IMG/VR virus record: IMGVR_UViG_3300011116_001007
Direction: 5' to 3' (one strand)
DNA from: a virus
Taxonomy: Duplodnaviria > Caudoviricetes
Length of the DNA stretch: 64,000 nucleotides
Made by a program: the position numbers and the translations under genes. Positions 36,560-55,344 of this stretch are shown in pieces (the stretch's first letter is position 1; every line of letters begins with the position of its first letter). The notes below the pieces were generated by a model, which saw only the letters and a list, made by a program, of their open reading frames with translations, was not told the DNA's origin and did no database searches.

Positions 36560-36586
36560 AAAGGGCCAATTGGCCCTTTACTTTTG
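36560..36586 (+). terminator. Terminator-like inverted repeat ending the tail operon
   Basis: Perfect 20-bp palindrome aaagggccaattggcccttt (36560-36579) followed by acttttg, 3 nt after the stop. Confidence 0.7.
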
Positions 36587-38462: not shown

Positions 38463-38802
38463 ACCCGTAACTGAACAAGAATTTTGGAGTATCTTGGCAG
38501 CCATGCCTGAATCTCAACCAGTTTTCTTTAGACTGTATCATGATGATCGCGGGCGTGTATTATTCTACAGCATGGAGGATGTTCCAGGTACATACATTGA
38601 AATTGATGCAGAAACTTTTGCGTTACAGTCCACAAACGTCAGAGTACAAGATGGCCGCCTGGTTGAAGTGGTCTGGATGACCAGTGAAAAACTTCAACCA
38701 ATGGAAACTGGTACACCCTGCCACCCCACAGACATAACCGTAATAGTTTCACCAAACGATCCGCACACCAAATGGAGCAAAAAAACACATGAACAAAATT
38801 GA
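38452..38802 (+). CDS. Hypothetical protein (116 aa)
   Basis: ORF overlapping both neighbours; FRLYHDDRGRVLFYSMED. Confidence 0.75.
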   Translation: MSNEPVTEQEFWSILAAMPESQPVFFRLYHDDRGRVLFYSMEDVPGTYIEIDAETFALQSTNVRVQDGRLVEVVWMTSEKLQPMETGTPCHPTDITVIVSPNDPHTKWSKKTHEQN

Positions 38803-39712
38803 CACAGCAGATTTAGATTGCATTTATCTCACCTACGACGAGCCACAACGTGAAGAATTCTGGGTAAAGATCAAGAACATGATTCCGTGGGCCAAACGTG
38901 TGGATGGTGTTCGCGGGTCTGATGCAGCACACAAAGCCGCTGCTGCTGCCAGTGACACAGAACGTTTTATTTTGATTGATGGCGACAACTTGCCTTCTGC
39001 AGATTTTTTCAACAAAACATTGGAATTGCCCACAGCTGACTACGAGCAAGCAGTGTTCCGCTGGCGTGCTAGAAATCATGTCAACGGACTCATGTATGGC
39101 AATGGTGGCATCAGTAGTTGGACACGTGAATTTGTGAATGCCATGCGTACACACGAAGCCACTGATGGACGTACAGAAACACAAGTTGAGTTTTGCTTTG
39201 ATCCCTTGTACTGGGCCATGCATGATTGCTACAGCACAACATATCCAGCGCAATCACCGTTCCATGCTTGGCGTGCAGGATTCCGCGAAGGTGTAAAGAT
39301 GTGCCTGAACAAAGGTGCCAGACCCACAGTGGATGAATTTAAAAATCAAGTACTGCGTAATCTTGATCACCTGACCATATGGCACAACATTGGATCTGAC
39401 GTAGAAAACGGAGAATGGTGTATGGCCGGTGCAAGACAAGGCACATACATGACCATGCTGACCAACTGGGATTACACACTGGTGCAGGACTTTGATGCAC
39501 TGGCTGAAATTTGGGCCACGGTAAAAGATGGCCAGCCGAGAATACTAAGCAATCAACTAGGGCCAGAGATGGGTACACAGCTGGACCTGCCAATGGCCAT
39601 ATTGGAATCTGAGCAAAGTGCGTTTTTCAAATATCATTATCGATCAAACTGGTATAATCGCGGTGCTATGGTTCGAGAGATAGATGTGATCAGACAACAA
39701 GAAGGTTGGTGA
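38789..39712 (+). CDS. GT-A/GT2-like glycosyltransferase-like protein
   Basis: IYLTYDE...AHKAAA..SDTERFILIDGDN (DxD); AWRAGFREGVKM; homologous by eye to the C-terminus of 59969-63949. Confidence 0.65.
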   Translation: MNKIDTADLDCIYLTYDEPQREEFWVKIKNMIPWAKRVDGVRGSDAAHKAAAAASDTERFILIDGDNLPSADFFNKTLELPTADYEQAVFRWRARNHVNGLMYGNGGISSWTREFVNAMRTHEATDGRTETQVEFCFDPLYWAMHDCYSTTYPAQSPFHAWRAGFREGVKMCLNKGARPTVDEFKNQVLRNLDHLTIWHNIGSDVENGEWCMAGARQGTYMTMLTNWDYTLVQDFDALAEIWATVKDGQPRILSNQLGPEMGTQLDLPMAILESEQSAFFKYHYRSNWYNRGAMVREIDVIRQQEGW

Positions 39713-40614
39713 TGATTAAATTATCACCAGATAATTTAATTCAATATTTTACATTGCCTAATGTAAATACCACTGAGTCCTTGTTGGGAAAAAATCCGTA
39801 CGATATTGTCACAAGAGATTCTGACACACTACTGGTCACCATTGGGGATTCTTGGACTTGGGGCGCTGACCTTACCGCCAAACATATTGGGTTGCATATC
39901 GATCGTAATTGTGATGATAATTATCGATTAGATAATGTGTATGGCGGAGTACTTGCAGACTACTTGCAAGCAGACTTTTTAAACCTTGGCGAGCCTGGCT
40001 CTAGCAATTGGCACATAGCTCGTAAATTAGCAGAACTTGCTAACATATCACATGATCTAAGTTATCAAAAAATTATTATTATTTGCATTTTTACAGAAAC
40101 TGGTAGGGACTTCAATTCTCTCGACGATGTTACAATTGATTATCGTGATTGGTTAATTAATAATGTAGTAGATTACACAAGTTATTATGACTTTTTAAAA
40201 TTTGTAAATCAACAAATTTCAGCTAAAATAATCAAGTCTTTAACCAGTCTGAGTTCGGCATGCAAGATATACTTTGGAACCAACTTTGTAGACCCTATTG
40301 GATACGAACAATTACAAGAGTATTTTTTAGACTATTCTTGGTTAAAAATTATTTGTCAACGTAATAATCTTGCTTACATGCCTGATGCTTGTTATATGGT
40401 ATTTCCTTGGGTGATTGAAAAATTTGAATGTTTGTTTGATTTTGCACCCGAACTTGATCGTGATCAATGGTTAATTTGGATGTCAGAGTTGGCTGAGGAT
40501 GCCAATGTACGAGCAACATTATGTAAAAAAGATTCAGTAAACTTCAATCAGTTGTTGCATCCAACAGCATCAAATCATAGATATTTTGCCGAGTACCTGT
40601 TGACACAATTATGA
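39712..40614 (+). CDS. SGNH/GDSL hydrolase-like protein (AT-rich)
   Basis: IGDSWTWG block I, NLGEPGSSN block II, terminal LLHPT; ATG at 39712 overlaps the previous TGA. Confidence 0.65.
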   Translation: MIKLSPDNLIQYFTLPNVNTTESLLGKNPYDIVTRDSDTLLVTIGDSWTWGADLTAKHIGLHIDRNCDDNYRLDNVYGGVLADYLQADFLNLGEPGSSNWHIARKLAELANISHDLSYQKIIIICIFTETGRDFNSLDDVTIDYRDWLINNVVDYTSYYDFLKFVNQQISAKIIKSLTSLSSACKIYFGTNFVDPIGYEQLQEYFLDYSWLKIICQRNNLAYMPDACYMVFPWVIEKFECLFDFAPELDRDQWLIWMSELAEDANVRATLCKKDSVNFNQLLHPTASNHRYFAEYLLTQL

Positions 40615-41558
40615 TCAATCAATACACACTCAGTCTGGCCAATGATAAAATTTGGGCAATTGATCATCTGATAGGATTCTTAGTCCACAATCAAGGTAAA
40701 GATATTGTTTTACATGTTAATCCAGAAGCACACTGTCTATATTCTTGCGGACTATACGCCATATTAGAAAAGTTTCAATTTAACAGTGTGACTATTTTTA
40801 CAAACAATGTACTTGAAACTCATCCAACATATCAAATTAAATATCGTAACATCAATACATTTTTTAGTGATAGTAAAAAATACAATCTGAGTGCGTCTGG
40901 CAAATGGAATGAACAAAAAATATTTGGAGCGTTTTACGGCAGACCCACTGCCAATCGTCTTGGCATTGCCAGTTATCTATACTCAAAATACAACAATCAG
41001 AGCGAAATTCTGCTGGCATCAAGAGTTGATTTAGTTGACAGTCGGGTGACATTTGAATTGGATAAACTGTTTGAATACGACATCGACAGCATGTCGCGTG
41101 TTGCTTATCTAATTGAAAATTTTAATTTTGGTGGAATTGATTACACTCCAATGGGAAATTTGTTTACCTACGATACACCGTTAAACAGTTTGTATGAAAA
41201 TATTCTAGTAGACATCATCAGTGAACCAAATATTAAAGGAAATACATTTTTCCCTACAGAAAAATTAGTAAGGCCGGTGTTGTTGAAAAAACCATTTATT
41301 GCAATGGCTTCAAAAAATTACTTGGAGTATGTACGGCAAATGGGGTTTCATACGTTCAATGAGTTTTGGGACGAAACGTATGATGGATACGAAGGCAGTG
41401 AACGCTACTTAAAAATTTTATCATTAATAAGTACGTTGGCTTCTAAATCAAAAAAAGAATTGTATGATCTTTATAATTTCATGCAGTTTCAAATTGATCA
41501 CAATTACAATTTGATTGTTAATAAATTGTACACCAAAAAAATCACATTGATTAACTAA
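40611..41558 (+). CDS. Glycosyltransferase-like 'TEK..KP' family protein, paralogue 1
   Basis: FYGRPTANR; ISEPN...FPTEKLVRPVLLKKPFI...EYVRQMGFHTFNEFWDETYD. Confidence 0.55.
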   Translation: MINQYTLSLANDKIWAIDHLIGFLVHNQGKDIVLHVNPEAHCLYSCGLYAILEKFQFNSVTIFTNNVLETHPTYQIKYRNINTFFSDSKKYNLSASGKWNEQKIFGAFYGRPTANRLGIASYLYSKYNNQSEILLASRVDLVDSRVTFELDKLFEYDIDSMSRVAYLIENFNFGGIDYTPMGNLFTYDTPLNSLYENILVDIISEPNIKGNTFFPTEKLVRPVLLKKPFIAMASKNYLEYVRQMGFHTFNEFWDETYDGYEGSERYLKILSLISTLASKSKKELYDLYNFMQFQIDHNYNLIVNKLYTKKITLIN

Positions 41559-41563
41559 CCAGT

Positions 41564-42577
41564 ATGCCTACCACAATTTTTATAACAGGTATTGCAGGAT
41601 TTTTGGGTAGCCACCTAGCTGATCATTTTATCAGACTGGGATATCATGTCAAAGGAAATGATAATTTGATAGGTGGGTGCCAAAGTAATATTCCAGCCAA
41701 AGCAGAGTTTTATAACATCGACTGTAACAACTTGTCAGCATTGACCACTGCAATGACCAATGTAGATATTGTAGTTCATTGTGCTGCCACAGCATATGAA
41801 GGGCTAAGTGTGTTCAGCCCAAGTTTTGTAGTTAATAATGTCATGCAGGCCAGCACAAGTGTAATTTCGTCAGCTATACAAAATAAAGTCAAACGCATAG
41901 TGTATTGCAGCAGTATGGCCAGATACGGCAACCAGAAAACACCGTTTGTTGAGTCAATGACTCCCGCACCTGTTGATCCATACGGCATAGCCAAGGTGGG
42001 TGGGGAATTGATATTAAAAAATTTATGTGACATCAACGGCATTGAGTGGAATATTGCAGTACCACATAACATCATTGGTACTAGACAAAAATACGATGAC
42101 CCATTTCGAAATGTTGTTAGCATTATGATTAATCGATGCTTGCAAAATAAACCGCCGGTGATATACGGCAACGGCACCCAGAAACGATGTTTTTCGTATA
42201 TCGACGACTGCGTGTATTGCTTGATCAAGTTAGTGACTGACACCAACATCACAAGCCAAACTGTAAATATAGGCCCTGATGAAGAATTTGTGACTATTAA
42301 CGAGTTGGCTGCACTTGTGATGGAACTCACAGAGTACAATGGCACCCCGTTGTATGTTAATCCGCGACCACTGGAAGTATCACTTGCTACATGCAGTTCT
42401 GATCTTGCCAGGCAGTTGCTAGACTATAAAACATCAACAACCTTACGCGAAGCAGTAACCCAGACCATGAACGGTATAAAACAATCAGGAGTACGACCGT
42501 TTGATTACAAATTCCCAGTTGAAATTAACAACAGCTTGACTCCGATAACCTGGCATAATGAATACTTTAACAAATAA
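41564..42577 (+). CDS. NAD-dependent epimerase/dehydratase (NDP-sugar modifying SDR)
   Basis: ITGIAGFLGS (GxxGxxG), CSSMARYG, PYGIAK (YxxxK), GNGTQKRCFSYIDD. Confidence 0.92.
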   Translation: MPTTIFITGIAGFLGSHLADHFIRLGYHVKGNDNLIGGCQSNIPAKAEFYNIDCNNLSALTTAMTNVDIVVHCAATAYEGLSVFSPSFVVNNVMQASTSVISSAIQNKVKRIVYCSSMARYGNQKTPFVESMTPAPVDPYGIAKVGGELILKNLCDINGIEWNIAVPHNIIGTRQKYDDPFRNVVSIMINRCLQNKPPVIYGNGTQKRCFSYIDDCVYCLIKLVTDTNITSQTVNIGPDEEFVTINELAALVMELTEYNGTPLYVNPRPLEVSLATCSSDLARQLLDYKTSTTLREAVTQTMNGIKQSGVRPFDYKFPVEINNSLTPITWHNEYFNK

Positions 42578-43964
42578 TAAAGGTGACGAGTCTGTAGACA
42601 ACAAGAGCCGGTTCCTTAACTCTGCTGAGCAAATGGCAGAGAACCTGGGCCCTGCACTATGTCTTGCCAAATGGAAACAGGTAAGTTTACATTTGCCCAC
42701 TGGATTAAATAACAGTTGCTACCATCCGCCGTTGCACTCTATATCCGTTGAAGATATTGGCCGCAATCCGGCAGCATTACACAATACAGATCATAAAAAA
42801 CAACAACGCAAGTTGATGTTAGCAGGCGAACGTCCAGCAGAGTGTCAGTATTGTTGGAACATGGAAGATCTAAGCAAACTCAGTGATCGACATTATAGAT
42901 CAGGCGAACCCTGGGCAGCAGTGGATTTTGAAAAAATAAAAAACTCAACTGGAGATGAACAAGATGTCGTACCGTCATATGTGGAAGTCAATTTTAACAA
43001 TGCCTGTAACCTTAAATGCAGCTATTGCAGTCCGCAGTTCAGCTCTAGCTGGCAACAAGAAATTGACCGCTACGGTGCCTTTCCTACTTTGGTTCCTCAT
43101 AACGCTCCTGAGCATTTTATCGGCCACCGCAGGCCTATTCCTGCCCGTGATCACAATCCTTACGTAGAAGCATTCTGGGCTTGGTGGCCCAGTCTATATC
43201 CTGAGCTCAAGCATTTCCGAATGACCGGCGGCGAGCCGCTGATGGATCGTAATACCTATCAAGTGTTTGACTATGTGCTGGACCATCCCAAGAGTGACTT
43301 GCATCTAGCTGTGACATCAAACTTCAGTGTAGAGCCCAAACTGTCTACCAAGTATTTTGATTATGTAAAAAGATTGTGCAATACTGATATTGAACATTTC
43401 ATGCAGTATGTGAGCCTTGACTCAGGCATAGGGCCTCAAGCTGAATACATACGCCACGGGTTAGACTTTGCTCGATTGCAGAACAATGTGGAAACATATC
43501 TTCGAGACATTCCATATCGCAACAGTCTCACTTTTATTGTGACCATGAACAATCTGGCAGTGACTGGATTCTTACCATTAATGCAATGGATCTTGGATCT
43601 ACGACGCAGACATAGTCAAACATATCAACGTGTGTGGTTTGATACACCTATACTGCGACAACCTGCCTGGCAAAGCCTACAAACATTGCCCGAAAGCTAT
43701 GCTGCAAAATTGGAACAAGCCCGCGACTTTATGTTGGAGAATCTAGAAACAGACGCTGATCCGTTTCACGGATTCAAAGACTATGAGGTGCAACGACTGG
43801 AACGTGATATTGCCTGGATGCGATCCTCTGCGCCGCAGCCCAGTGCAATGGCAGACTTTGCAAGATTTTTTAACGAACACGATCGCCGCAGAGGTACTGA
43901 CTTCAAGGCCACATTCCCAGAAATGATCACCTGGTGGAAACAATGCGGTCTACATGCTAGGTAA
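42558..43964 (+). CDS. Radical SAM protein with N-terminal Twitch/SPASM-like domain
   Basis: CLAKW..NSCYHPP..ECQYCW, then CNLKCSYC and TGGEPL. Confidence 0.9.
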   Translation: MNTLTNNKGDESVDNKSRFLNSAEQMAENLGPALCLAKWKQVSLHLPTGLNNSCYHPPLHSISVEDIGRNPAALHNTDHKKQQRKLMLAGERPAECQYCWNMEDLSKLSDRHYRSGEPWAAVDFEKIKNSTGDEQDVVPSYVEVNFNNACNLKCSYCSPQFSSSWQQEIDRYGAFPTLVPHNAPEHFIGHRRPIPARDHNPYVEAFWAWWPSLYPELKHFRMTGGEPLMDRNTYQVFDYVLDHPKSDLHLAVTSNFSVEPKLSTKYFDYVKRLCNTDIEHFMQYVSLDSGIGPQAEYIRHGLDFARLQNNVETYLRDIPYRNSLTFIVTMNNLAVTGFLPLMQWILDLRRRHSQTYQRVWFDTPILRQPAWQSLQTLPESYAAKLEQARDFMLENLETDADPFHGFKDYEVQRLERDIAWMRSSAPQPSAMADFARFFNEHDRRRGTDFKATFPEMITWWKQCGLHAR

Positions 43965-45072
43965 TCACAAAGTCGTTGTGGATGAATGGGCCGAAGTTTG
44001 GGATCTCCTCAAACCCTATGCCGACGGCAGCTTCTGGCGCTGGAGTGATTTAACTCTTGATCCGTCGACTGTGTATATTGTTGGGCGAGTGGTGCTCAAA
44101 GAGAACTGGCAATCCATAACCGAATGGGCACACCAACATCCGGGAAAAATAGTGTTTTGCAATCCTGCTGAAGGATCTCAGACTATATTACTGCAACTGA
44201 AAAGATTGATGATTTCTGAGCAAATCAAATCAGGAGAAATATTGTTGCTGACCTCAGGAGATCTAGAATCTGGGTGGAACTATTGCAAGACTGATTGTTA
44301 TTTTTCCAACATTGTCGAATATCTTGAAAACATTGGCGCACACGAATCTTGGCCGCAAGTGTATCACAAAAAAAACAAACCATATGATTTTTTGTTTTTG
44401 AATGGACGCCTAAGGCCACATCGCAAATATCTAATAGATCAACTACGACAGAAGAAATTATTGGATCGAGCACTGTGGACCAACTTAGGCGAGCAAGTGG
44501 AAATGTCCTGGACCAGCACATTGTTAACCGAATCAAACGAGCCAGTTAGATTGTTGCCCGAGCAGTATGAGATACCTCGTGCCTTACCCAACATGTCAGA
44601 ATTGCCAACAGGATTTGTCAAACATCACCTGTTTGGAAACACCTGGGGCGATGCCATAGTCAATCCTGCGGCCTATGTGGACACGTCGTTTTCGTTGGTA
44701 ACAGAAACCATATTTGATTATCCGCACACATTCCGAACAGAAAAGATCTGGAAGCCCATGATCATGTGTCATCCATTTGTGGTGGCTGCCAACCGCGGCT
44801 ACTATCGAGACCTGCATAATGCAGGGTTTGAAACATTCGGCAACTTGATCGACGAGTCATTTGACCAGATTGACGATCCTACCGATCGTGCCAATAGAGT
44901 GGTTGCAGTTGTGAAAGATATATGCTATAATGGTGCTGAGGCTTTCTTAGAAGCTGCCAGAAGTGCATGTAAATACAACTATCAGCAACTTCGCGATCAC
45001 AACAAACAACAACGTGCTGCTCTGTCAGCTCAACTTGAGATTTATATAAATGCCAACACACACTATAGCTAG
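43954..45072 (+). CDS. Glycosyltransferase-like 'TEK..KP' family protein, paralogue 2
   Basis: FLFLNGRLRPHR; LVTET...RTEKIWKPMIMCHPFVV...GFETFGNLIDESFD. Confidence 0.55.
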   Translation: MLGNHKVVVDEWAEVWDLLKPYADGSFWRWSDLTLDPSTVYIVGRVVLKENWQSITEWAHQHPGKIVFCNPAEGSQTILLQLKRLMISEQIKSGEILLLTSGDLESGWNYCKTDCYFSNIVEYLENIGAHESWPQVYHKKNKPYDFLFLNGRLRPHRKYLIDQLRQKKLLDRALWTNLGEQVEMSWTSTLLTESNEPVRLLPEQYEIPRALPNMSELPTGFVKHHLFGNTWGDAIVNPAAYVDTSFSLVTETIFDYPHTFRTEKIWKPMIMCHPFVVAANRGYYRDLHNAGFETFGNLIDESFDQIDDPTDRANRVVAVVKDICYNGAEAFLEAARSACKYNYQQLRDHNKQQRAALSAQLEIYINANTHYS

Positions 45073-46105
45073 AACTTTCCCCACCAAATGGGTGTATGGT
45101 GAGTACGAAGAAAAAATACTACACAGTCTTTCAGCACAGATCGACAGTCGATTTCCTGATCAAAACAATTTAATTTTAAATTTTACCTGGCATGGGCCGT
45201 GGACTGATACCGAAGTTGACGACTATATCTCAACTGGCAAAAAGATTGATCAGTTGTTTATTGTGTGTACTGTGGATGGTTACCTAGGCACGTTGGATCA
45301 TTACATAAAACGATTAAAAGACACTGTTGGAGTTTCCACTGTGCATTGGGTGGGGAATTTTGAAAATAGTCCTTTTGAATTTAATTTTTTTGCCATAGTA
45401 TGCAGAGATCATTTCAAGAAGTACAACACACAAGATCTAATTCTGACTGATGTGAAACATGCATTTGTCAGTTACAATCGCAAACCTTATCCACACCGAT
45501 TAGAGTTTGTTCGAGAACTAGTGAATACCGGATTAAACAATCATGGCGTGATAACAATGGGTCGCAGTTTTCCCGGAGAAGACCACGGATTATTCATGAG
45601 CATAGGAGAGCGTGAAGAAGATTATGTAAAATATGGACATTGGTACGAGCCAGGAACAGAGTCAACTCCTCATGTGATTCCGCATGATCTTTTTAGCTTA
45701 CACAATTGGCCAGTGTGGCAACATCATTTTTTACATGTGACGGGAGCAACTATATTTCCTGATTATTTGCCGGTGTTTGTTAATCAGATACATTTTAAAC
45801 CCATTATTGGACTGCGTCCATTCATAATAAATGGACAGAGCAAGCAAAGTGCGTATCTCAGAAAACACGGATTCCGAACTTTTGAAAAATGGTTTCCTGG
45901 AACAGAAGTCAATACTTCACCGCCTGAGGCAGCAGAACAAAGTAAAAATCAATTGGTCAAGACCTTGCAAACCTTAGTAAAATTGTCGCCCACAGAAATG
46001 CTAGACATGTACCAAAGCATGCTGCCTGATTTGTTACACAACCGCCAGCGTTGGTTTGAGTGGGCAGATGAGCAGGCAGCGTTGGCAGAAAATATATTTC
46101 AATGA
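45050..46105 (+). CDS. Glycosyltransferase-like 'TEK..KP' family protein, paralogue 3 (divergent motif)
   Basis: FVSYNRKPYPHR; NQIHFKPIIGLRPFIING...YLRKHGFRTF. Confidence 0.5.
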   Translation: MPTHTIARTFPTKWVYGEYEEKILHSLSAQIDSRFPDQNNLILNFTWHGPWTDTEVDDYISTGKKIDQLFIVCTVDGYLGTLDHYIKRLKDTVGVSTVHWVGNFENSPFEFNFFAIVCRDHFKKYNTQDLILTDVKHAFVSYNRKPYPHRLEFVRELVNTGLNNHGVITMGRSFPGEDHGLFMSIGEREEDYVKYGHWYEPGTESTPHVIPHDLFSLHNWPVWQHHFLHVTGATIFPDYLPVFVNQIHFKPIIGLRPFIINGQSKQSAYLRKHGFRTFEKWFPGTEVNTSPPEAAEQSKNQLVKTLQTLVKLSPTEMLDMYQSMLPDLLHNRQRWFEWADEQAALAENIFQ

Positions 46106-47448
46106 ATGATTTAGAATTTAAACACACAGTATTAGACCCTCTCTCAGCCAGTTTTTGTGCGGCAAAATGGTATAACGCAACCATTTGGTTAGGAAGTGGA
46201 CAGACCACAAGTTGTCATCACCCGCCAGCCCATTTAGTGGACGTATCTATGTTATCCGCTAACCCTAAGCTACTGCACAATACTCCACAAAAGAAAGAAG
46301 ATCGTCGCAAGATGATCAACGGGGAGCGTCCCCCTGGCTGTGAGTATTGCTGGAAGATTGAAGACATGGGTCGTGACGCTGTGAGCGACCGTGTGTATAA
46401 AAGTCGAATTTATCCTATAGAGGCATTAGATGAAGCATTTGAAACTCCGGCAACTACTGACGTTAACCTACGAACCCTTGAAATTGCATTTGACCGCACT
46501 TGTCAATTTGCTTGTAGCTATTGTAACCCTGCTTTTAGTAGCACTTGGGTTAACGATATACGAAAGAATGGACCTTATAACGGACTTGTTAGTGATGGTC
46601 GGAACCATTTTACTCACACTCACGATAGCAGCCAACTTTATAAATTCGGTCAAACTAATCCGTATGTGGAAGCATTCTTCCGATGGTGGGAAACAGACCT
46701 CCATCGAACACTACAAGAACTAAGAGTCACTGGCGGCGAACCACTGATGAGCGCCGAAACTTGGAAACTGATTGATTGGTTTCGGCATAATCCTGGCCGC
46801 AGCCAAACAAGATTAGCAATCAATTCAAATTTAGGCACAGCAGTAGACTTGGATCGATTGTTAGACAGCATCACAGGATTGGAAGTGGACATATACACAT
46901 CAAACGAAAGCATAGGCTTACAAGCTGAATACATCAGAGACGGACTGGTATGGGACGACTGGGCCAACAATGTAGAACGCCTGTTGGACTCGAGAAAGTT
47001 ACGTGGTATACATGTGATGAACACTATCAATGCCTTGTGCTTGGATACATTGGATCAGTTCTTGGAATGCATAATGAACTGGAAACTAGAATACGGTCGT
47101 GATGCTGTGAGTTTTACATTGAATATATTAAGATTCCCTAGCTTTCAGTCTCCACTGGTGTTGCCTGACAACCTGCGTATGGTATATCGACAACGCCTGA
47201 TCACATGGCTAGAACATTGGGCAGGTAGTGAGTTTTTACACGAACACGAACTCAATCATGTACAGCGCCTGATAGATTATTTGGATGTGGTCAAGACTCC
47301 TCATTCAGAAGCATTTGAAATGCCCAAATTGTTGAGCGACTTCAAACAGTTCTATACACAATACGATCAACGACGCGGCAAAGACTTTGGCCTGGCGTTT
47401 CCCACATTAAAACACTGGTATGACTCAATACAAATACAACAGCAGTGA
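46102..47448 (+). CDS. Radical SAM protein with N-terminal Twitch/SPASM-like domain
   Basis: CAAKW..TSCHHPP..GCEYCW, then CQFACSYC and TGGEPL. Confidence 0.9.
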   Translation: MNDLEFKHTVLDPLSASFCAAKWYNATIWLGSGQTTSCHHPPAHLVDVSMLSANPKLLHNTPQKKEDRRKMINGERPPGCEYCWKIEDMGRDAVSDRVYKSRIYPIEALDEAFETPATTDVNLRTLEIAFDRTCQFACSYCNPAFSSTWVNDIRKNGPYNGLVSDGRNHFTHTHDSSQLYKFGQTNPYVEAFFRWWETDLHRTLQELRVTGGEPLMSAETWKLIDWFRHNPGRSQTRLAINSNLGTAVDLDRLLDSITGLEVDIYTSNESIGLQAEYIRDGLVWDDWANNVERLLDSRKLRGIHVMNTINALCLDTLDQFLECIMNWKLEYGRDAVSFTLNILRFPSFQSPLVLPDNLRMVYRQRLITWLEHWAGSEFLHEHELNHVQRLIDYLDVVKTPHSEAFEMPKLLSDFKQFYTQYDQRRGKDFGLAFPTLKHWYDSIQIQQQ

Positions 47449-48679
47449 TTTGGTACGTGCTACTGAACTCACAAACCGCGAGCAATTTTTGCTTGCCGAA
47501 TCAAAAACTTTTTGTATCTATCCTTGGATACATCTGCATGCTTACCCCACTGGAGAAGCATATCCTTGTTGCCATGCAGAAATGAAATATCCAGTGGGCA
47601 ATTGCAGAACCAATACATTGAATGAAATTTGGCAAGATAAACCCATGCAAAAACTACGGTCAGACATGTTGAATGAAACTGCCAATCCTGCATGCGGACG
47701 TTGTTACGAACAAGAACAATCAGGATTCTTTAGTGGCCGTAAAAGTGCAAATAAACATCACGGGCACCATGTTAAAAAATTAGAACAAAATCCTTTTGAA
47801 ATGACCTATTGGGATATACGATTCTCAAATCTTTGCAATTTAAAATGCCGTAGTTGTGGTCACATATTTTCAAGCCAATGGTATCAAGATCAAGCCAAAC
47901 TAGCCGGCGGCGACTGGAAAGCTCGTAATCCTGTGTTGAATTATGCAGGCCGTACAGAAACTGACATGTGGGAACAATTGTTACCTCATATAGATTATGT
48001 TGAACAGATCTATTTTGCCGGCGGCGAACCACTGTTGATGGAAGAGCACTATCGCATTTTGGATGAACTGGTTCGTCGAAAAAGATTTGACGTACGGTTA
48101 ATATACAATACCAATTTTACTCATACTGATTTAAAAGGTCAGAGTGTATTCAATTACTGGAAACAATTTGATAGCGTAGCAGTAGGTGCCAGCCTTGACG
48201 GGTCAGGGAAGTATGGTGAATATATACGCAAAGGAACAGACTGGCAGAAAGTTGAACAAAATAGAATTGAAATGTTGAATATCTGCCCTGATGTGGACTT
48301 TTATATCAGTCCCACACTCAGTATAATGAATGCTTGGCATCTGCCAGACTTTCACCGTGATTGGGTCAGCCGTGGTTTTATAAAACCACAAGATCTCAAT
48401 GTAAACATATTGCAAGATCCGTTGCATTATCGAATCGATATTGCTCCTGTGAAATACAAACAACGACTACGTGTAAAATATCAAGAACACATGGCATGGT
48501 TAGAAGGTCAGGATTCTTTGCAACGTGCTACTGAAGGCTTCAACTCAGCAATTAACTTTATGATGGCCACAGACAACACACATCTCATTGACACATTCTG
48601 GCGCAAAACACACGAACTTGATGCTATAAGAAATGAAAAACTACTAGATACAATTCCTGAACTTGAGGCATTGACATGA
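47420..48679 (+). CDS. Radical SAM protein with N-terminal SPASM/Twitch domain
   Basis: CIYPW..GEAYPCC..VGNC..LNEIW..CGRCY, then CNLKCRSC and AGGEPL. Confidence 0.92.
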   Translation: MTQYKYNSSDLVRATELTNREQFLLAESKTFCIYPWIHLHAYPTGEAYPCCHAEMKYPVGNCRTNTLNEIWQDKPMQKLRSDMLNETANPACGRCYEQEQSGFFSGRKSANKHHGHHVKKLEQNPFEMTYWDIRFSNLCNLKCRSCGHIFSSQWYQDQAKLAGGDWKARNPVLNYAGRTETDMWEQLLPHIDYVEQIYFAGGEPLLMEEHYRILDELVRRKRFDVRLIYNTNFTHTDLKGQSVFNYWKQFDSVAVGASLDGSGKYGEYIRKGTDWQKVEQNRIEMLNICPDVDFYISPTLSIMNAWHLPDFHRDWVSRGFIKPQDLNVNILQDPLHYRIDIAPVKYKQRLRVKYQEHMAWLEGQDSLQRATEGFNSAINFMMATDNTHLIDTFWRKTHELDAIRNEKLLDTIPELEALT

Positions 48680-49263
48680 ACAAAGGTCTTGCGCTAGGAT
48701 GTAGCCATACCGCCGGTGTAGGAATCAACTACTCTGATTGTTATGTAACTTTTTTAAGTCAGCACTATCAGACTACTATTAAAAATTTAGCAGTGCCTGG
48801 CGGCAGTCATGAACAAGTTGAAAGCAATCTAATAAATGAGATCAAAAATGATTGCCCAGATTTTGTAATAGTACAATGGCCAAATCCATTCCGGCGTACA
48901 ATTTGGAATGGCGAACGCTCAAATTTAGAAAATATAACAAATGCAAGTTCGGTGTTTAAGCAATTACTAAAGCTAGGGGAAAAAAATTTTTATACCCCGT
49001 GGATACAAAGCATTGTTACCTGTAACACTGTTTGCACTGTGGCCAAAGTACCAATTGTAAATATCATGTTAGAAAATCTTGAAGAACAATATTATTTAAA
49101 ATTAAAAAAAGAAGGTATTGTTTTACATGTGGATGAAAAACTTCCTGGAAAAACTTGGTTGTTTGATAGTGCTGCCAATGACAATATGCATCATAGTGCC
49201 CGGTGCCATAGAGCATGGGCCGATAGACTTGTAGGATTAATAGATGAAAATACCGCACGATAA
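48676..49263 (+). CDS. SGNH-like hydrolase/acyltransferase-like protein (AT-rich)
   Basis: LGCSHTAG, NLAVPGGS, terminal DNMHH (DxxH). Confidence 0.6.
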   Translation: MNKGLALGCSHTAGVGINYSDCYVTFLSQHYQTTIKNLAVPGGSHEQVESNLINEIKNDCPDFVIVQWPNPFRRTIWNGERSNLENITNASSVFKQLLKLGEKNFYTPWIQSIVTCNTVCTVAKVPIVNIMLENLEEQYYLKLKKEGIVLHVDEKLPGKTWLFDSAANDNMHHSARCHRAWADRLVGLIDENTAR

Positions 49264-50455
49264 ATTTTGTGTTTTGCCTTGGATCAGTATCGAAGCCAGC
49301 CCAATTGGCACAGTACGACCCTGCTGTTTAGCCGATGATGAAATTGTGGACGACAACGGTGAAAAATTTCAACTGGCCACAGCAGACTTTGCTGACATAC
49401 AAAACAGCAATCACATGCGTGATTTGCGTGGAGATTTTTTAGCAGGAAAAAAACCTCAGACATGTCGTAAGTGTTGGAATGAAGAACGATCAGGCCGCAC
49501 AAGCAAACGTATGCACACATTAGATCGTCTAAAACATGTTCTCAAAGATCAAGAGTGGACCAGTGATGCTAAACCGCTGATGTTCCTGGATCTCAAGCTG
49601 GGTAATATCTGCAATCTCAAATGTAGAATATGCGGTTCATGGTCAAGTTCTCAATTTGCCAGTGAAGAAATTGCCTGGCTGCCCCGAGAGGAACAAAAAA
49701 CTAGTCACGCTTATCAGATGCTACGAGCTGGAGCCTGGCCCAAAGAAAACACACAATTCTGGACTCAGATTGATAGTGTATTGTCTGACATACGTTACAT
49801 TGAATTCACCGGCGGCGAACCTTTCATGATTGAACAACATTTTGACATGTTGCAAGGCATAGTAGATCGTGGTATTGCAGCTCAAGTAGAAATACACTAC
49901 AACACCAACGGCACACAATGGCCCGAGCGCGGACCAGAAATTTGGCGGCATTTTAAAACAGTAGAAGTGGCATTTAGTATAGACGATGTGGGGGCCAGAT
50001 TTGATTATCAACGCACCAACGCAGACTGGGCAGTGGTGTTAGACAATATTACAAGTTTTCAATATCTTAAAGATCAACTGCCCAACTTGCGGTTACAATG
50101 CTGTTCAACAGTGAATGTGTTCAATGTGCGTTACATTGATGAACTGGCACGCTGGATAGCCCTGCAACGGTTTGACTTTGTGTACTGGAACATGATGCAT
50201 GACGCCTGGTACTTTAGCATAGCCACTTTGCCCGACACTGCAAAAACACAAATTATTGCACACCTAGAATCGGCCAATGTGCCCGATCAATACCAAGACG
50301 AATTTGAGCGCATAGTAGATTTCATGCGTAACGGAGCATCCACCGACGGATTCATGACACGTATGAAGATAGCCGATCTAGACAGAAAACGCAATCAAGA
50401 TTTACGAACAGTGGCTCCTGAATTTGCACAGATAATAGAATACACAGGTCCATGA
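49244..50455 (+). CDS. Radical SAM protein with N-terminal SPASM/Twitch domain
   Basis: CVLPW..GTVRPCC..CRKCW, then CNLKCRIC and TGGEPF. Confidence 0.92.
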   Translation: MKIPHDKFCVLPWISIEASPIGTVRPCCLADDEIVDDNGEKFQLATADFADIQNSNHMRDLRGDFLAGKKPQTCRKCWNEERSGRTSKRMHTLDRLKHVLKDQEWTSDAKPLMFLDLKLGNICNLKCRICGSWSSSQFASEEIAWLPREEQKTSHAYQMLRAGAWPKENTQFWTQIDSVLSDIRYIEFTGGEPFMIEQHFDMLQGIVDRGIAAQVEIHYNTNGTQWPERGPEIWRHFKTVEVAFSIDDVGARFDYQRTNADWAVVLDNITSFQYLKDQLPNLRLQCCSTVNVFNVRYIDELARWIALQRFDFVYWNMMHDAWYFSIATLPDTAKTQIIAHLESANVPDQYQDEFERIVDFMRNGASTDGFMTRMKIADLDRKRNQDLRTVAPEFAQIIEYTGP

Positions 50456-51459
50456 CTGTTGTATTAATGTTTCCGGCCAGTCTGACGCCCTGGCACACTC
50501 AATGCATGCTGCAAGGATGTCCATTTGAGATTTTTGATCCAGATATCGAGTACCCAACCTCAACTGTATTTTTATACAACATGTATGGTCCTTACCAGGA
50601 ATATATCAAGCAACATCTTGATCAAGGGTACCGAGTCATATATGATGCCAAAAATGAACACTATGTGAATCCTGACAAACATTGGGTGCTGGACGAATTT
50701 GTGGCACATCCAGGTCAAGGAATGTTTTTGATATCCGGACATGAGCCACAAACAATTGCTGGAGTAACAATAGCAGCCACACCTTATTGGTATTGGATAA
50801 TTGACCAGACAGAGTTTAAAAAATTTGGATACGACCAGTATCGGTGGAACCCCACATACAAATTTGATTTTTTCATGCAGATAAGCCTGCCTAGAGTCGA
50901 CAGAGACGTGCTGTATGATATAATGGCGCCTGTGTTGCATCGCGGATTACACAGTTATCGCAGTCGTGGAATATTTTTGCCCAATGATGTTGACACAACA
51001 GCAGTACCGGATTGGCAACGATATACTAATTTTGATTGGATTGATCAATGCAATCTCACCGTGATAGTGGAAACTAACATCGACGACGCTACCATAACTG
51101 GAACCAGTATAACAAAAAATGATCAGTGGTTCTTGTGCGAAAAAACTTATAAACCTATTGCGTATGGCCATCCTTTTTTACAAGCAGGCACCTGCGGCAA
51201 TTTAAATTATGTACGGCAGCAAGGATTTGAAACTTTTCCCGAACTATGGGATGAAAGCTATAGCAATTTGCCACACTACACTGATCGCGTCCGTGCTATA
51301 ATGAGTATCATCCAATCATTTGACCCTGCTGCATTGTCAATGCCCATTGTTCGAGAAAAATTAAAATACAATCAAGCAAGATTTTTTGACAAAGAGTTAA
51401 CCGCAAAATTCCTAGCAGAAACCATCACAAATCCTATTATTGAGTTTGCCAATGACTAA
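50452..51459 (+). CDS. Glycosyltransferase-like 'TEK..KP' family protein, paralogue 4
   Basis: VIVET...FLCEKTYKPIAYGHPFL..G...YVRQQGFETFPELWDESY. Confidence 0.55.
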   Translation: MTVVLMFPASLTPWHTQCMLQGCPFEIFDPDIEYPTSTVFLYNMYGPYQEYIKQHLDQGYRVIYDAKNEHYVNPDKHWVLDEFVAHPGQGMFLISGHEPQTIAGVTIAATPYWYWIIDQTEFKKFGYDQYRWNPTYKFDFFMQISLPRVDRDVLYDIMAPVLHRGLHSYRSRGIFLPNDVDTTAVPDWQRYTNFDWIDQCNLTVIVETNIDDATITGTSITKNDQWFLCEKTYKPIAYGHPFLQAGTCGNLNYVRQQGFETFPELWDESYSNLPHYTDRVRAIMSIIQSFDPAALSMPIVREKLKYNQARFFDKELTAKFLAETITNPIIEFAND

Positions 51460-52741
51460 ACCAGACACATTGTGCATGGCACCTTGGGTGCATACCTATC
51501 TCTCTCCGCAGACCGAGCGTCGCATGTGCTGTGCATCTAGAGAACCTGCACAAAATTTTGAACAATACATTGATACTGCATCAGGCACAGGTACTTACAT
51601 ACCAATCACCCTAGAACAGCATTGGAACAGTGATCACATGCGATCAGTCCGTCGCCGCATGATGGCTGGAGAACGCCTGTCTGAATGTGAAGTTTGCAAT
51701 GATCAGCTACTGAACACTGATGTTTACCGCACATATTTTTGGCAACTTTTTAAACATAAATATTCAGACGCAATGGCAGCTACCGGTAAAGATGGATTTT
51801 ATGAACCGTTGCCAGTGAGTTGGGATTATAGATTTAGTAACTTTTGTAATTTTAAATGTAGAACTTGCGGAGACATGTTGAGCAGTGCTTGGGAGTCAGA
51901 ACAAAAGACACACCGCATGGTCGACTGGAGCAATTCCAAAAACAACTGGATGCGTCCCGAAGTGCGAAAAAAGATCACTCAGTTCCAAGACAGTCAAATT
52001 GAGCAAGAGTTTAGCGATGCCGTAGAACAGCACAGAGTAGAAGAAGTATACTGGGTAGGCGGCGAACCCTTGATGTACGAACAGCACTGGCAGTACATGC
52101 AGCGCATAATAGAATTAGGGGACGGACCAAGAGTATATGCTAGATACAATACAAACTTATCAAGAGTGGATTATCGCGGGATCAACTTGTATCGCGATAT
52201 TTTGTCTGGGCTTAGGGATTGGCAGATATGTGCAAGTCTCGACGGCACAGGCCCAATTGGAGAATACATTAGAACAGGCCTTGACTATGATCAATGGCTT
52301 GAAAACTTCCGTGGAGCAATTGCAATCCAACGTCACCCACGTCAAGTCAGAATTGACTTTACGCTCACTCTGCCCGGAATGTTTGAAGTTGGCCCGATTA
52401 CAGAACTCGCTGGACAACTTGGCGTCGATGTCTTGGCCAAAGTGATCTTCTCATTCAGCCCTGACATTGTAATGAGCCCGTTGGCACTGCCTAGGCATTT
52501 GTTGCATCCGTGGTTGGATGAATTGATTGCCAAAACATCAGGTGCCATGCAGGCGGTATTGATGCAGTTAAAAAATCGACCCACTTTTGAAGAACAATGG
52601 CCGGATACCTATCAACAAAGTCTTGCCCAAGGTCGTGCTCGTGTGTTACAATTGGAACAGATAAGAACACAATCTGTAACAATGACTGATATCCTATCAG
52701 CCAGACCTGCGGTATTAAAATGGTGGATGAACATTGCTTAA
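51452..52741 (+). CDS. Radical SAM protein with N-terminal SPASM/Twitch domain
   Basis: Start reassigned to ATG 51452; CMAPW..RMCC..CEVC, then CNFKCRTC and VGGEPL. Confidence 0.9.
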   Translation: MTKPDTLCMAPWVHTYLSPQTERRMCCASREPAQNFEQYIDTASGTGTYIPITLEQHWNSDHMRSVRRRMMAGERLSECEVCNDQLLNTDVYRTYFWQLFKHKYSDAMAATGKDGFYEPLPVSWDYRFSNFCNFKCRTCGDMLSSAWESEQKTHRMVDWSNSKNNWMRPEVRKKITQFQDSQIEQEFSDAVEQHRVEEVYWVGGEPLMYEQHWQYMQRIIELGDGPRVYARYNTNLSRVDYRGINLYRDILSGLRDWQICASLDGTGPIGEYIRTGLDYDQWLENFRGAIAIQRHPRQVRIDFTLTLPGMFEVGPITELAGQLGVDVLAKVIFSFSPDIVMSPLALPRHLLHPWLDELIAKTSGAMQAVLMQLKNRPTFEEQWPDTYQQSLAQGRARVLQLEQIRTQSVTMTDILSARPAVLKWWMNIA

Positions 52742-53771
52742 TTCAATTGAACTAGATTTACGAAGTGCAGACAACAAACTGCTGACTGTGTACGTTGATG
52801 TGTACGACAATAGCCTTGCACATAAATGGCTTGCAGCATTGACTCATCTGATTGATAACGAATATCATTTGGAAAAAAATTATTGTTGGCTAGGCTGGGT
52901 TGAAAGTGCTCGCTCCGTGGAATATATTTGTACTCAAATCAATTGCAGCATACATGCAATCAACGCAGCAGGACTGGGTTATGTAATACAAGATTTTTTT
53001 ACACCATCCAATACCACTACAGACGATGGAAAAATTGATCATGCACACATGAATCAATTACATAGTTATTTTGAAGATCTGCAAGGAGTGTCTGGAGCAA
53101 TGAGTCCATATTACAACATTGCTGACAATACCACAAGATGGCACATACGTCAATTGAACTTGCTGTGTCATGAACTAGAAAGTCTGGTGTTGAGTATTCG
53201 TAAATTAAAAACGGCACCCGAATGGCGCCGACCATCACAGTTGATGTGTTGGTTACAATCTCCAAGATTCTTGCTAGAACCAGAAGACTATGAACTGTTT
53301 GGTATTGACACAATCAATCGAGAATTAGGCGGTGTATATGTAGGAGTAAATAAAGCAGTAGGAAAACATCACTGGGAAGTTTTCAATGATGAAGGACGAG
53401 ACAGTCGAGTTGGCGAACTTGCTACCAGCACACTCAGATCTCAAACTGAAGCAGCTGGCGATTTTGATATTGAGTGGGCAAATAATCCTGGCGCCTTTCC
53501 GTGGCAAATCAAAATGCTTGGAGAATTCCGCACCTGGTTGATAAAAAATGGATTTGATCCTGATGATAAAACGTTGACCATTGGACATCCTAAAATCGCA
53601 CAAGTAGATTTGGTTCGCAGTTTTGGTACCACAGATTACAGTAAAATTTGGGAAAAAATATCAGCACATCTAGATGTGTATAAAATACGAACTGGAACAG
53701 TCGAAGCTACATACGACTATCGCTGGAGCGATGAGGACTATGATCAACAACAAATAAAGGAATTGTCATGA
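52734..53771 (+). CDS. Hypothetical protein (345 aa)
   Basis: Long ORF, TTG start, overlaps both neighbours; no family recognised. Confidence 0.75.
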   Translation: MLNSIELDLRSADNKLLTVYVDVYDNSLAHKWLAALTHLIDNEYHLEKNYCWLGWVESARSVEYICTQINCSIHAINAAGLGYVIQDFFTPSNTTTDDGKIDHAHMNQLHSYFEDLQGVSGAMSPYYNIADNTTRWHIRQLNLLCHELESLVLSIRKLKTAPEWRRPSQLMCWLQSPRFLLEPEDYELFGIDTINRELGGVYVGVNKAVGKHHWEVFNDEGRDSRVGELATSTLRSQTEAAGDFDIEWANNPGAFPWQIKMLGEFRTWLIKNGFDPDDKTLTIGHPKIAQVDLVRSFGTTDYSKIWEKISAHLDVYKIRTGTVEATYDYRWSDEDYDQQQIKELS

Positions 53772-53869
53772 ACTGGATTAAAAATTTATGGAACAGAATC
53801 ACATTAGAAATTCGCTATCGTAAAAAACTACGAGAACTTCGCAAGCGCGACCCATTCATCTACAAATGA
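53768..53869 (+). CDS. Small basic peptide (33 aa) coupled to the carbamoyltransferase
   Basis: Hand-translated MNWIKNLWNRITLEIRYRKKLRELRKRDPFIYK; ATGA overlaps at both ends exactly fill the gap. Confidence 0.75.
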   Translation: MNWIKNLWNRITLEIRYRKKLRELRKRDPFIYK

Positions 53870-55344
53870 ACTATTTGGGAATATCTGCTGGGTTTCACGA
53901 TGCAGCCGTCAGCGTGATCAGTCATGACGGCAACATCTTGTTTGCTGCTCACAGTGAACGATATAGCAAAAACAAGCATGATAAAAATCTCTGTAAAAAT
54001 TTATTGTTGGATGCAATGGATTACACAGACCCTAGCCAGATTGAGTATCACTATTACGAACGTCCCTGGGTCAAGGCCATGCGACAATTACGCAGTGGCG
54101 AAGGTTTTAAATGGCCCACCTGGAATAGATTGCTAGGAAATTCTTACAATTTCTTAGACCAACCTCAAATACACACTCATGCTCATCACTTGTGTCATGC
54201 AGCCGCAGGGTTTCAGACCAGTCCCTTCGAAGATGCCACTGTAGTGGTGATTGATGCCATTGGAGAGTTTGATACTATCACTATCTGGGACGCTTGGTAT
54301 GATTTCTCAACAGGTAAAGCTGAATACAAAAAGTTGTGGAGCATGAAGTATCCAAACAGCATTGGTTTATTCTATTCGGCAATGACCAAAAGAGTTGGGC
54401 TACGACCGCTTGATGAAGAATACATTCTAATGGGCATGGCAGCGTATGGAAAACCCATACATCTAAAGGATATGATAAATCAGTTGGTGGACAGCAAAGA
54501 TATATTCACTTTCAAGCAGAATCTACACATAGGTGTTGATGAAGATTTCTTAAAAGATGCTGACAATTACAACATCGCTAGTACGTCTCAAGAGTTGGTA
54601 GAACACATGATCTCTAGAGTAATGAGCAAAGCTAGAATGATAGGTTCTAGTAAAAATCTAGTATACGGTGGTGGAGTAGCGTTGAATTGTTTAGCAAACA
54701 GATTATTGGGGAACTTTTATGAAAAAATTTGGATCATGCCCAACCCCGGCGACGCCGGCAACAGCCTTGGCGCAGCGTGTCTGGGGTACGGTGCAAAAGT
54801 CAATTGGCGTGACTGTTTCTTGGGTCATAATATTCCTGGTGATTATCCTGTTAATTCCATTCTTGATGTATTACTCACTGACAAAATTGTTGGTGTGGCT
54901 AGTGGCCGAGCGGAGTTTGGGCCCAGGGCACTAGGCAATCGCAGCTTGTTGGCAGACCCAAGAGGCAACAAAATAAAGGATCAGGTGAATGAAATCAAAC
55001 GCAGACAAAAATTCAGACCCTTTGCTCCGGTTATTCTTGAGGAGTATGTTGATCAATATTTTGATATGCCTCGTCATTGGCACAACAGTAGGTATATGCA
55101 AGTGGTCGGTACTTGCAGGAATCCTGAGTTGTTTCCTGCTATTGTTCATCACGACGGCACTAGTCGTATACAAACTGTACCCAACGATGGAAGCGGAATT
55201 CGACAACTATTGGAAAAGTGGCATTTTATGACCGGCTGCCCGATGCTATTAAATACCAGTCTAAACATACGCAATGAGCCCATGGTCAATGACCGTACAG
55301 ATGCTGATAGATTTGAAAAATTATACAAAATAAAAGTGTGCTAA
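53866..55344 (+). CDS. Carbamoyltransferase (NodU/CmcH family)
   Basis: GISAGFHDAAV, HHLCHAAAG, VIDAIGE, GGVALNC, EFGPRALGNRS, FRPFAP, LLNTSLN. Confidence 0.95.
   Translation: MNYLGISAGFHDAAVSVISHDGNILFAAHSERYSKNKHDKNLCKNLLLDAMDYTDPSQIEYHYYERPWVKAMRQLRSGEGFKWPTWNRLLGNSYNFLDQPQIHTHAHHLCHAAAGFQTSPFEDATVVVIDAIGEFDTITIWDAWYDFSTGKAEYKKLWSMKYPNSIGLFYSAMTKRVGLRPLDEEYILMGMAAYGKPIHLKDMINQLVDSKDIFTFKQNLHIGVDEDFLKDADNYNIASTSQELVEHMISRVMSKARMIGSSKNLVYGGGVALNCLANRLLGNFYEKIWIMPNPGDAGNSLGAACLGYGAKVNWRDCFLGHNIPGDYPVNSILDVLLTDKIVGVASGRAEFGPRALGNRSLLADPRGNKIKDQVNEIKRRQKFRPFAPVILEEYVDQYFDMPRHWHNSRYMQVVGTCRNPELFPAIVHHDGTSRIQTVPNDGSGIRQLLEKWHFMTGCPMLLNTSLNIRNEPMVNDRTDADRFEKLYKIKVC

Follow-up and report, generated by a model that had tools for sequence, protein, structure and literature searches.

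Five radical SAM enzymes with an N-terminal twitch module in a glycosyltransferase-rich gene cluster of a jumbo phage: candidates for oxygen-independent tailoring of a phage glycan

The 64,000-nucleotide stretch of viral DNA analyzed here (hereafter the window; IMG/VR record IMGVR_UViG_3300011116_001007) encodes five radical S-adenosylmethionine (SAM) enzymes which carry an auxiliary cysteine module ahead of the radical SAM core. The five genes, designated A1, A2, B1, B2 and B3, belong to a cluster which spans approximately 36.6 to 60 kb, and is therefore wider than the 42558–52741 region that they occupy; it also specifies glycosyltransferases (GTs) and amidino-, carbamoyl- and methyl-transferases (Table 1). 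We give about even chances to the reading that these five different enzymes carry out oxygen-independent tailoring of sugars in a phage glycan which is assembled in the cytoplasm of the host. That the substrate is a sugar, which types of reaction are involved, and what the acceptor might be, we infer from the evidence set out below.

A preliminary description of this DNA, made from its letters, listed five open reading frames (ORFs) with N-terminal Cys modules. All five exist and surpass the 170-bit curated cut-off of NCBIfam NF033640 [N_Twi_rSAM, twitch domain-containing radical SAM protein], with scores of 277.4–394.7 bits and matches extending from model positions 1–3 to 388–398 of 398. The frame of the fifth ORF opens with TTG at 51440, the ATG at 51452 given in that description being its fifth codon. 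A sixth N_Twi gene, also well above the cut-off and matching the model along its whole length, is found just outside the window (G000:C1:5725-6924(-)).

The motifs quoted for the two subtypes are present in the alignment ahead of CxxxCxxC, namely C.AKW, SC.HPP and C.YCW in subtype A (A1 and A2) and C..PW, CC and C..C in subtype B (B1, B2 and B3). Judged by sequence identity the two subfamilies are real, as had been proposed, since A1 and A2 share 34% and the B copies 26–27% of their residues, as against 19–25% between subtypes. In B1 numbering the CxxxCxxC cysteines (C139/C143/C146), the SAM-binding G201-G202-E203 and the four N-terminal cysteines (C32, C50, C92 and C95) are invariant in 392–393 of 393 viral homologues, so that the N-terminal Cys residues are indeed conserved. 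These four and the CxxxCxxC triad are likewise invariant in all six copies on the contig and in 30 diverse aligned sequences. The AlphaFold model of B1 has a pLDDT of 86 and a pTM of 0.87.

The statement that no characterized family claims these proteins was borne out. MoaA (30.7 bits vs a cut-off of 284), QueE of the Clostridial type (22.4 vs 260) and NrdG2 (16.8 vs 131) were rejected, as were viperin, NirJ and AhbD, all of which scored far under their cut-offs. Models of the radical SAM/SPASM maturases of peptides which are made by the ribosome and modified post-translationally (RiPPs) gave 16–24 bits against cut-offs of 340–650 and were also rejected. A profile search of the PDB found no solved structure of the N_Twi family, Swiss-Prot yielded no reviewed relative with the N-terminal twitch architecture, and no publication on an N-terminal twitch/SPASM family was found in the literature. 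NF033640 is a bioinformatic definition, that is, a catalogued and functionally empty family.

The Pfam SPASM model (cut-off 21.5 bits) matches the N-terminus over its full 67 positions in two copies, B1 (49.0 bits, residues 32–96) and B2 (27.6 bits, residues 9–78); in B3 the match falls below the threshold (16.9 bits) and A1 and A2 are unmatched. The N-terminal cysteines are spaced C-x17-C-x41-C-x2-C and no second Cx5Cx3C block occurs in the alignments. With a single set of four cysteines the module is of the twitch type, having one auxiliary site. In a metagenome-assembled genome (MAG) which contains both architectures, the N-terminal segment of the profile (positions 5–60) aligns after the core, at residues 300–356, in the canonical radical SAM/SPASM neighbors. 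The module is thus a SPASM/twitch domain in circular permutation, and together with the Pfam matches this upholds the suggestion that it is both N-terminal and homologous to SPASM/twitch. In the best explanation the four N-terminal cysteines are predicted to ligate one extra [4Fe-4S] cluster. Searched alone, the module had no match in the PDB.

A scan of IMG/VR revealed at least 570 confirmed stretches, from which 80 loci were kept (35–86% identity to the product of 47420–48679). Most of these loci contain three to eight N_Twi genes within 21 kb, and many also possess a pair of GT8-like genes, GT2-like genes in one or two copies, a carbamoyltransferase, the gene corresponding to 52734–53771 and both fiber-like proteins. 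A tree of the 393 N_Twi copies from the viral loci separates the five genes of the window; A1, A2, B2 and B3 fall in clades with the support given in Table 1, while B1 belongs to a residual group for which the clade is not well supported. One of each of the five is present in 43 of the 80 loci, most commonly in the order A1-A2-B1-B2-B3. On the strength of the separate clades and the one-of-each loci, the five are old, non-redundant orthologous groups, and the set is a widespread phage cassette occurring in hundreds of contigs. It had been proposed that the five paralogues perform sequential radical chemistry on one substrate. Separate orthologous groups in a fixed order do fit several distinct steps in one pathway; peptide crosslinking, one of the chemistries then considered, has become less likely, since neither a RiPP recognition element (RRE) nor a precursor-like ORF is present.

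As Pfam and NCBIfam returned nothing for the interleaved and upstream ORFs, these were approached through structure and profiles. Six of the interleaved or flanking ORFs constitute one paralogous family with a C-terminal block containing a T-E-K motif (the TEK family), in which R160, E246-T247 and T257-E258-K259 are near-invariant. None of 71 members was matched by Pfam at E ≤0.1, while the family profile, searched against 1.84 billion representatives, recovered 12,772 clusters (50% identity). Many TEK proteins are tandem fusions of 700–850 amino acids, and every one of their nearest Atlas clusters is viral. The model of the 58855–59970 product was compared by VIA-align with about 50 GT-B structures, giving Z scores of 8.5–11.5 across residues 1–368, in accord with the GT-B arrangement of two Rossmann-like domains of which the C-terminal one binds the donor. 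The top rows are T4 BGT (Z 11.5), Helicobacter pylori alpha1,3-FucT (2NZX, Z 10.8) and T4 AGT (Z 10.4), followed by POGLUT1, FUT9 and FUT11, and the neighbors of the model in the AlphaFold DB are named fucosyltransferase or GT1. Because the top rows are tied, only the GT-B fold and the use of nucleotide sugars can be regarded as established for the modeled family. Assignment to CAZy family GT10 was rejected: Glyco_transf_10 is unmatched, and the resemblance of the family to GT10 is limited to the fold (2NZX, Z 10.8) and to a motif similar to TEK.

The profile of the two GT8-like ORFs, for which there was no direct Pfam match, recovered 19 distinct glycogenin sequences (E 2e-4 to 1e-3) over positions 6–108, which include D-A-D. 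The true start of 36854–37759 is probably near 36914. The GT-B fold of the model and the GT8 profile match show that the interleaved genes, earlier called GT-like, include genuine glycosyltransferases. The GC content falls to 34.6% at 40001–42000, as compared with approximately 42–45% around it; this dip, which coincides with the first TEK gene (40611–41558), may mark a recent insertion.

The appearance of two DNA glucosyltransferases, BGT and AGT, among the top matches of the TEK model, together with the cytoplasmic location of all the enzymes, raises the question of whether sugars are placed on the bases of phage DNA and then radical-tailored. We regard such hypermodification as very improbable and as the least likely of the alternatives. 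BGT lies within 1 Z of the fucosyltransferases and POGLUT1, with which it has only the GT-B fold in common; the cluster contains no recognizable base-activating enzyme (hydroxymethylase, kinase, TET/JBP or DpdA) and is part of the baseplate/fiber module rather than the replication module. Complete relatives carry a QueD-type deazaguanine gene some 48 kb from the cassette, suggesting that DNA modification is encoded elsewhere. A search of the contig and of the complete relatives with Pfam TGT revealed no TGT/DpdA, and the QueD-type gene was the only one of this kind to be found.

The association of N_Twi genes with glycosyltransferases recurs in other genomes. A minimal syntenic set is found in Ralstonia phage RsoM2USA, where a single A-type radical SAM gene (37% identity to A1) accompanies GT8-like and GT2-like genes, two of each. 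In Vibrio phage K566 four N_Twi copies are interspersed with a GT4-like gene and a pair of genes matched by Pfam GT8, and on a marine single-virus contig an amidinotransferase, an SGNH-like gene (weak, E 4.5e-4), a carbamoyltransferase and an N_Twi gene lie side by side. Three of 300 other Bacteroidota genomes sampled carry the family, each as two to four clustered copies; since so few hold it at all, the presence of five copies in the window is not a matter of chance. At one Bacteroidota locus the N_Twi genes are beside a methyltransferase-GT2 fusion and a GDSL protein, and at a second beside a GT11-like gene. Since N_Twi genes are found again and again, independently of lineage, beside glycosyltransferases and enzymes that decorate sugars, we consider a carbohydrate to be the most likely substrate. 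An obligate coupling between N_Twi and TEK proteins was rejected: the TEK family was not found in K566, RsoM2USA, the Bacteroidota loci or a MAG labeled Elusimicrobia, and it varies from zero to five copies among the related phage loci. A single-protein scan of bacterial genome contigs returned only phage-like contigs which had been binned into MAGs. Two contigs (183 and 148 kb) of a MAG labeled Haliscomenobacter sp., which look like binned phage contigs, carry the whole cassette at approximately 65–80% protein identity; they could be a hint of the host (Saprospiraceae) or an artefact of binning.

From 36.9 to 56.7 kb the genes of the cluster overlap or abut. None of the cluster proteins has a credible membrane helix, nor was a flippase, a polymerase or a priming transferase recognized, from which it follows that the pathway is cytoplasmic. 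The 56687–57724 product aligns with AGAT in three collinear stretches, which include the C-terminal region of the catalytic cysteine (GG-x-x-C-x-T). For 52734–53771 no family, PDB or Atlas match was obtained. The SGNH (39706–40614 and 48676–49263) and FkbM-like (56019–56696) designations are unverified labels assigned by eye, and the PDB search with 39706–40614 and 56019–56696 was without a match.

If the reading of a radical-tailored glycan is correct, approximately nine soluble glycosyltransferases would assemble the glycan in the host cytoplasm and the radical SAM enzymes would perform C-H chemistry that needs no oxygen, acting either on the sugars of this glycan or on the nucleotide-sugar precursors of these. 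Candidate reactions, by analogy with BtrN, NeoN/HygY and AprD4, would be oxidation to keto-sugars, epimerization, deoxygenation and C-C bond formation; with these enzymes and BlsE as precedents, and with an auxiliary site predicted to be ligated by Cys throughout, such oxidation, epimerization, deoxygenation or C-C chemistry on sugars is the likeliest. The carbamoyl-, methyl- and amidino-transferases would attach further groups. In the weakest step of the scheme, the acceptor would be a virion fiber protein encoded just upstream. The cluster directly follows the baseplate genes, the 5004-residue structural ORF described below and the fiber-like proteins, and it is the solubility of all of the enzymes, combined with this place right after Ser/Thr-rich fiber-like proteins, which suggests virion fibers as the acceptor. 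We consider it possible, though doubtful, that the virus pathway makes a previously unseen radical-tailored glycan on its fibers, bearing guanidino or carbamoyl groups and epimerized or deoxygenated sugars, in hundreds of aquatic phages and some bacteria.

An amidinotransferase, a TobZ/NodU carbamoyltransferase, a twitch radical SAM enzyme and a GT-B are the toolkit of aminocyclitol pathways, and all are encoded in this cluster, the first two as StrB1/AGAT and TobZ/NodU types. The product might therefore be a soluble, aminoglycoside-like compound or another small sugar metabolite; or the nucleotide-sugar pool of the host might be changed, leading to an altered surface polysaccharide and to superinfection exclusion. 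The separate promoter and terminator ahead of the cluster would be in keeping with either. So would two published views: modification of the host O-chain is favored for a comparable cluster of pelagimyophages (Zaragoza-Solas et al. 2020, PMC7029224), and related cyanophage genes have been termed ‘antibiotic synthesis genes’ (PMC12801897). We think these possibilities quite unlikely nonetheless. No inosose synthase, aminotransferase, exporter, resistance gene or membrane protein was found in the cluster; a set of nine transferases points to an oligosaccharide and not to a pseudo-trisaccharide; and serotype conversion would be of little gain to a lytic jumbo phage.

Several observations weigh against tailoring of a phage glycan. 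It is gene neighborhood, and nothing beyond it, that points to a sugar as the substrate of the radical SAM enzymes, while their nearest solved core folds are those of the peptide and protein modifiers anSME, CteB, SkfB, MftC and PqqE, plus BlsE. An aminotransferase which might supply the amine for the amidinotransferase was not found. On one Bacteroidota chromosome (G081:C2:1210614-1220835) two N_Twi genes adjoin five PhyH dioxygenases, a WelO5-like halogenase-type dioxygenase and a methyltransferase, so that six PhyH/WelO5-type genes stand in place of the glycosyltransferase neighbors. The 2.9-Mb MAG labeled Elusimicrobia (contigs G002:C126 and C22) has 92 matches to the family, about 60 of them above the NF033640 cut-off, which is an extreme expansion of paralogues. 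They occur as head-to-tail tandem arrays, mostly fused to long N-terminal arrays of tetratricopeptide repeats (TPRs) in proteins of 560–1130 amino acids. These TPR-fused copies suggest protein recognition, and the TEK profile found no GT-B of that family in the same MAG. Lastly, between the enzymes and the fiber genes lie a terminator-like hairpin and a sigma-70-like promoter, and a candidate late promoter (19-nt motif TATAAACTAYGCNGTTTTT) was not found in the tailoring cluster; co-expression with the fiber genes is therefore not implied.

These facts lend some weight to the view that the radical SAM enzymes act directly upon protein or peptide side chains, for example those of the fibers, by epimerization, cross-linking or oxidation, with the glycosyltransferases acting separately or later. 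The likeness of the core to that of the protein modifiers, the approximately 60 mostly TPR-fused copies in a single MAG and the Ser/Thr-rich fiber-like proteins just upstream of the cluster could all be explained in this way, as could the dioxygenase locus with its adjacent fiber-like protein, which is secreted by the type IX secretion system (T9SS) and has a Peptidase_S74 chaperone domain. A shared Peptidase_S74 fiber substrate was rejected, as the product of 33550–35562 has no similarity to this T9SS fiber protein. We judge direct protein modification unlikely, albeit deserving of attention, for the following reasons. Pfam identified only Radical_SAM, SPASM and Fer4_12 in the five enzymes and no RRE/PqqD-type domain; the cluster, with its tightly packed genes, has no small Cys-rich or repeat-type precursor ORF; the linkage to glycosyltransferases recurs across independent lineages; and the structural likeness to the protein modifiers is confined to the common radical SAM core.

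Table 1. Features of the tailoring cluster and of the region immediately upstream (window coordinates)
Feature	Coordinates	Strand	Evidence
Radical SAM A1, N-terminal twitch	42558..43964	+	NF033640 319.5 bits; clade in 62/80 viral loci, support 0.89
Radical SAM A2, N-terminal twitch	46102..47448	+	NF033640 289.0 bits; clade in 54 loci, support 0.93
Radical SAM B1, N-terminal twitch	47420..48679	+	NF033640 394.7 bits; Pfam SPASM residues 32-96, E 7e-13
Radical SAM B2, N-terminal twitch	49244..50455	+	NF033640 336.6 bits; SPASM residues 9-78; clade support 0.96
Radical SAM B3, N-terminal twitch	51440..52741	+	NF033640 277.4 bits; clade support 1.0, one copy per locus in 52 loci
TEK-family GT-B	40611..41558	+	Paralogue of five others; family profile E 4.5e-57; low-GC stretch
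TEK-family GT-B	43954..45072	+	Paralogy; family profile E 1.3e-100
TEK-family GT-B, divergent	45050..46105	+	Paralogy; family profile E 3.2e-52
TEK-family GT-B	50452..51459	+	Paralogy and family profile
TEK-family GT-B	57711..58985	-	Paralogy and family profile
TEK-family GT-B, modeled copy	58855..59970	-	AlphaFold pLDDT 94, pTM 0.92
GT8-like GT-A	36854..37759	+	Profile match to glycogenin, E 2e-4, across DxD region; syntenic homologue in RsoM2USA
GT8-like GT-A	37701..38462	+	Profile match to glycogenin through DxD region
GT2-like candidate (lead only)	38789..39712	+	Atlas cluster auto-named ‘Glycosyltransferase 2-like’, score 0.99; invariant D64-G65-D66
NAD-dependent nucleoside diphosphate (NDP)-sugar epimerase/dehydratase (short-chain dehydrogenase/reductase)	41564..42577	+	Pfam Epimerase E 3.6e-42, GDP_Man_Dehyd E 2e-30
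Conserved protein travelling with the cassette	52734..53771	+	Homologue in most related viral loci
NodU/CmcH-type carbamoyltransferase	53866..55344	+	Carbam_trans_C E 1.6e-47, Carbam_trans_N E 5.6e-37; in most related loci
SAM-dependent methyltransferase	55345..56022	+	Methyltransf_11 E 5e-17
Amidinotransferase (AGAT/StrB1 family)	56687..57724	-	PDB matches AGAT E 1e-14, StrB1 1.5e-12, SxtG, HsvA
Tail-fiber-like protein, candidate acceptor	33550..35562	+	N-terminus matches PHROG ‘virion structural protein’; 23% Ser+Thr with repeats; travels with the cassette
Ser/Thr-rich protein, candidate acceptor	35576..36556	+	30% Ser+Thr; homologue in most related loci
Terminator-like hairpin	36560..36579	+	8-bp stem, 5 GC pairs, then T-run
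Sigma-70-like promoter	36577-36605	+	TTTACT-17-TATAAT

The window corresponds to positions 7705–71704 of a 102,964-bp IMG/VR virus contig, estimated to be 30% complete. Matches in PHROG include a late sigma factor, an SbcCD-like nuclease, virion proteins, a baseplate hub and a baseplate wedge. The wedge protein (14269–17736) has 33–34% identity to its counterparts in Sinorhizobium phage Phosso, Agrobacterium phage Atu_ph07, Yersinia phage fHe-Yen9, Klebsiella phage K64-1 and phage RaK2. Based upon these similarities the window is a fragment of a freshwater jumbo myophage of the Rak2/Atu_ph07-like type, with a genome of about 340 kb; relatives that possess direct terminal repeats measure 337–347 kb. 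The lineage is abundant, with B1 (47420–48679) having more than 7800 homologues among metagenome proteins, 120 of which, among the matches listed, are 83–98% identical.

Directly 3' of the wedge gene is an ORF of 5004 amino acids (17736–32750, plus strand) which is non-repetitive, contains 17.5% Ser+Thr and has almost no Cys or His; it presumably specifies a giant baseplate or fiber protein. Motif TATAAACTAYGCNGTTTTT is located on the plus strand at 6072–6090, just 5' of a gene for a virion structural protein (6121), and at 14208–14226, just 5' of the wedge gene (14269). Three matches were found where 0.14 would be expected, the third (3 mismatches) being on the minus strand at 26682–26700, and the motif is a candidate for the late promoter in this group of phages. 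The sixth N_Twi gene is part of a mini-cluster upstream of the window (G000:C1:3699-9158) together with an amidinotransferase paralogue (E 3e-61 to 56687–57724) and a radical SAM gene (window 444–1454(-)) of the type known from Campylobacter phage CP220.

To our knowledge the radical SAM enzymes which act on sugars are few and come almost entirely from antibiotic pathways. Here hundreds of phage contigs have retained a family with a permuted auxiliary-cluster domain in the form of five distinct enzymes, among sugar-handling genes. Identification of the products would provide five new radical reactions and a function for NF033640, and a function for the TEK proteins would cover a GT-B family of some 12,800 sequence clusters for which Pfam has no model. 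It would also explain the 20-kb ‘tailoring islands’ beside the tail-fiber genes of large aquatic phages, noted since 2010 without explanation. Should the glycan reading be true, the N_Twi proteins would provide the first known case of radical SAM enzymes tailoring the glycoconjugate of a virus particle, with a different reaction for each orthologous group; and were the virion the target, phage glycosylation would match in complexity what has hitherto been seen chiefly in giant eukaryotic viruses.

Clusters of a related kind have been described in other phages. An exchangeable cluster of Campylobacter phages CP220 and CPt10 combines a glycine amidinotransferase with five radical SAM genes (Timms et al. 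2010, PMC2853527). In common with the window, CP220 has five radical SAM genes, a single amidinotransferase homologous to 56687–57724 (E 4e-8) and two GT-A genes, situated just 3' of baseplate lysozyme/PAAR genes. Its radical SAM proteins differ from ours in being 250–345 amino acids in length, with the radical SAM motif at the N-terminus and N_Twi scores of 21 bits or less; they resemble instead the product of window 444–1454(-) (E 2e-19). Pelagimyophages and cyanomyophages have a hypervariable ‘host recognition cluster’ in the structural/tail-fiber region, containing GT8, other glycosyltransferases and radical SAM cassettes (PMC7029224). It belongs to T4-like phages of approximately 150–250 kb and is described at the level of annotation, and that description includes neither a radical SAM subfamily, nor a quintet, nor an N-terminal twitch. 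Neither of these two studies (PMC2853527, PMC7029224) assigns a product.

Among solved structures the best match to the radical SAM core is anSME (PDB 4K36-4K39; Foldseek E 3e-5, 20–23% identity). This enzyme functions in sulfatase maturation, acts on a protein Cys or Ser and carries two auxiliary clusters in a SPASM domain at its C-terminus; only the core aligns (approximately 250–270 columns).

BtrN, NeoN, HygY, AprD4 and BlsE are twitch radical SAM enzymes which oxidize, epimerize, dehydrate or decarboxylate sugars, and the Cys spacing of BtrN is similar to the C-x17-C-x41-C-x2-C of the five. BlsE matches the family in the core only (E 5e-4), and no BtrN chain was found with either the family profile or the N-terminal module, the resemblance to BtrN being one of cluster type and gene context only. 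The auxiliary module is C-terminal in the BtrN-type enzymes whereas in the five it is N-terminal. What the two groups have in common is a radical SAM core with a single four-Cys auxiliary [4Fe-4S] site, predicted in the case of the five, and a setting in carbohydrate pathways which include amidino- and carbamoyl-transferases.

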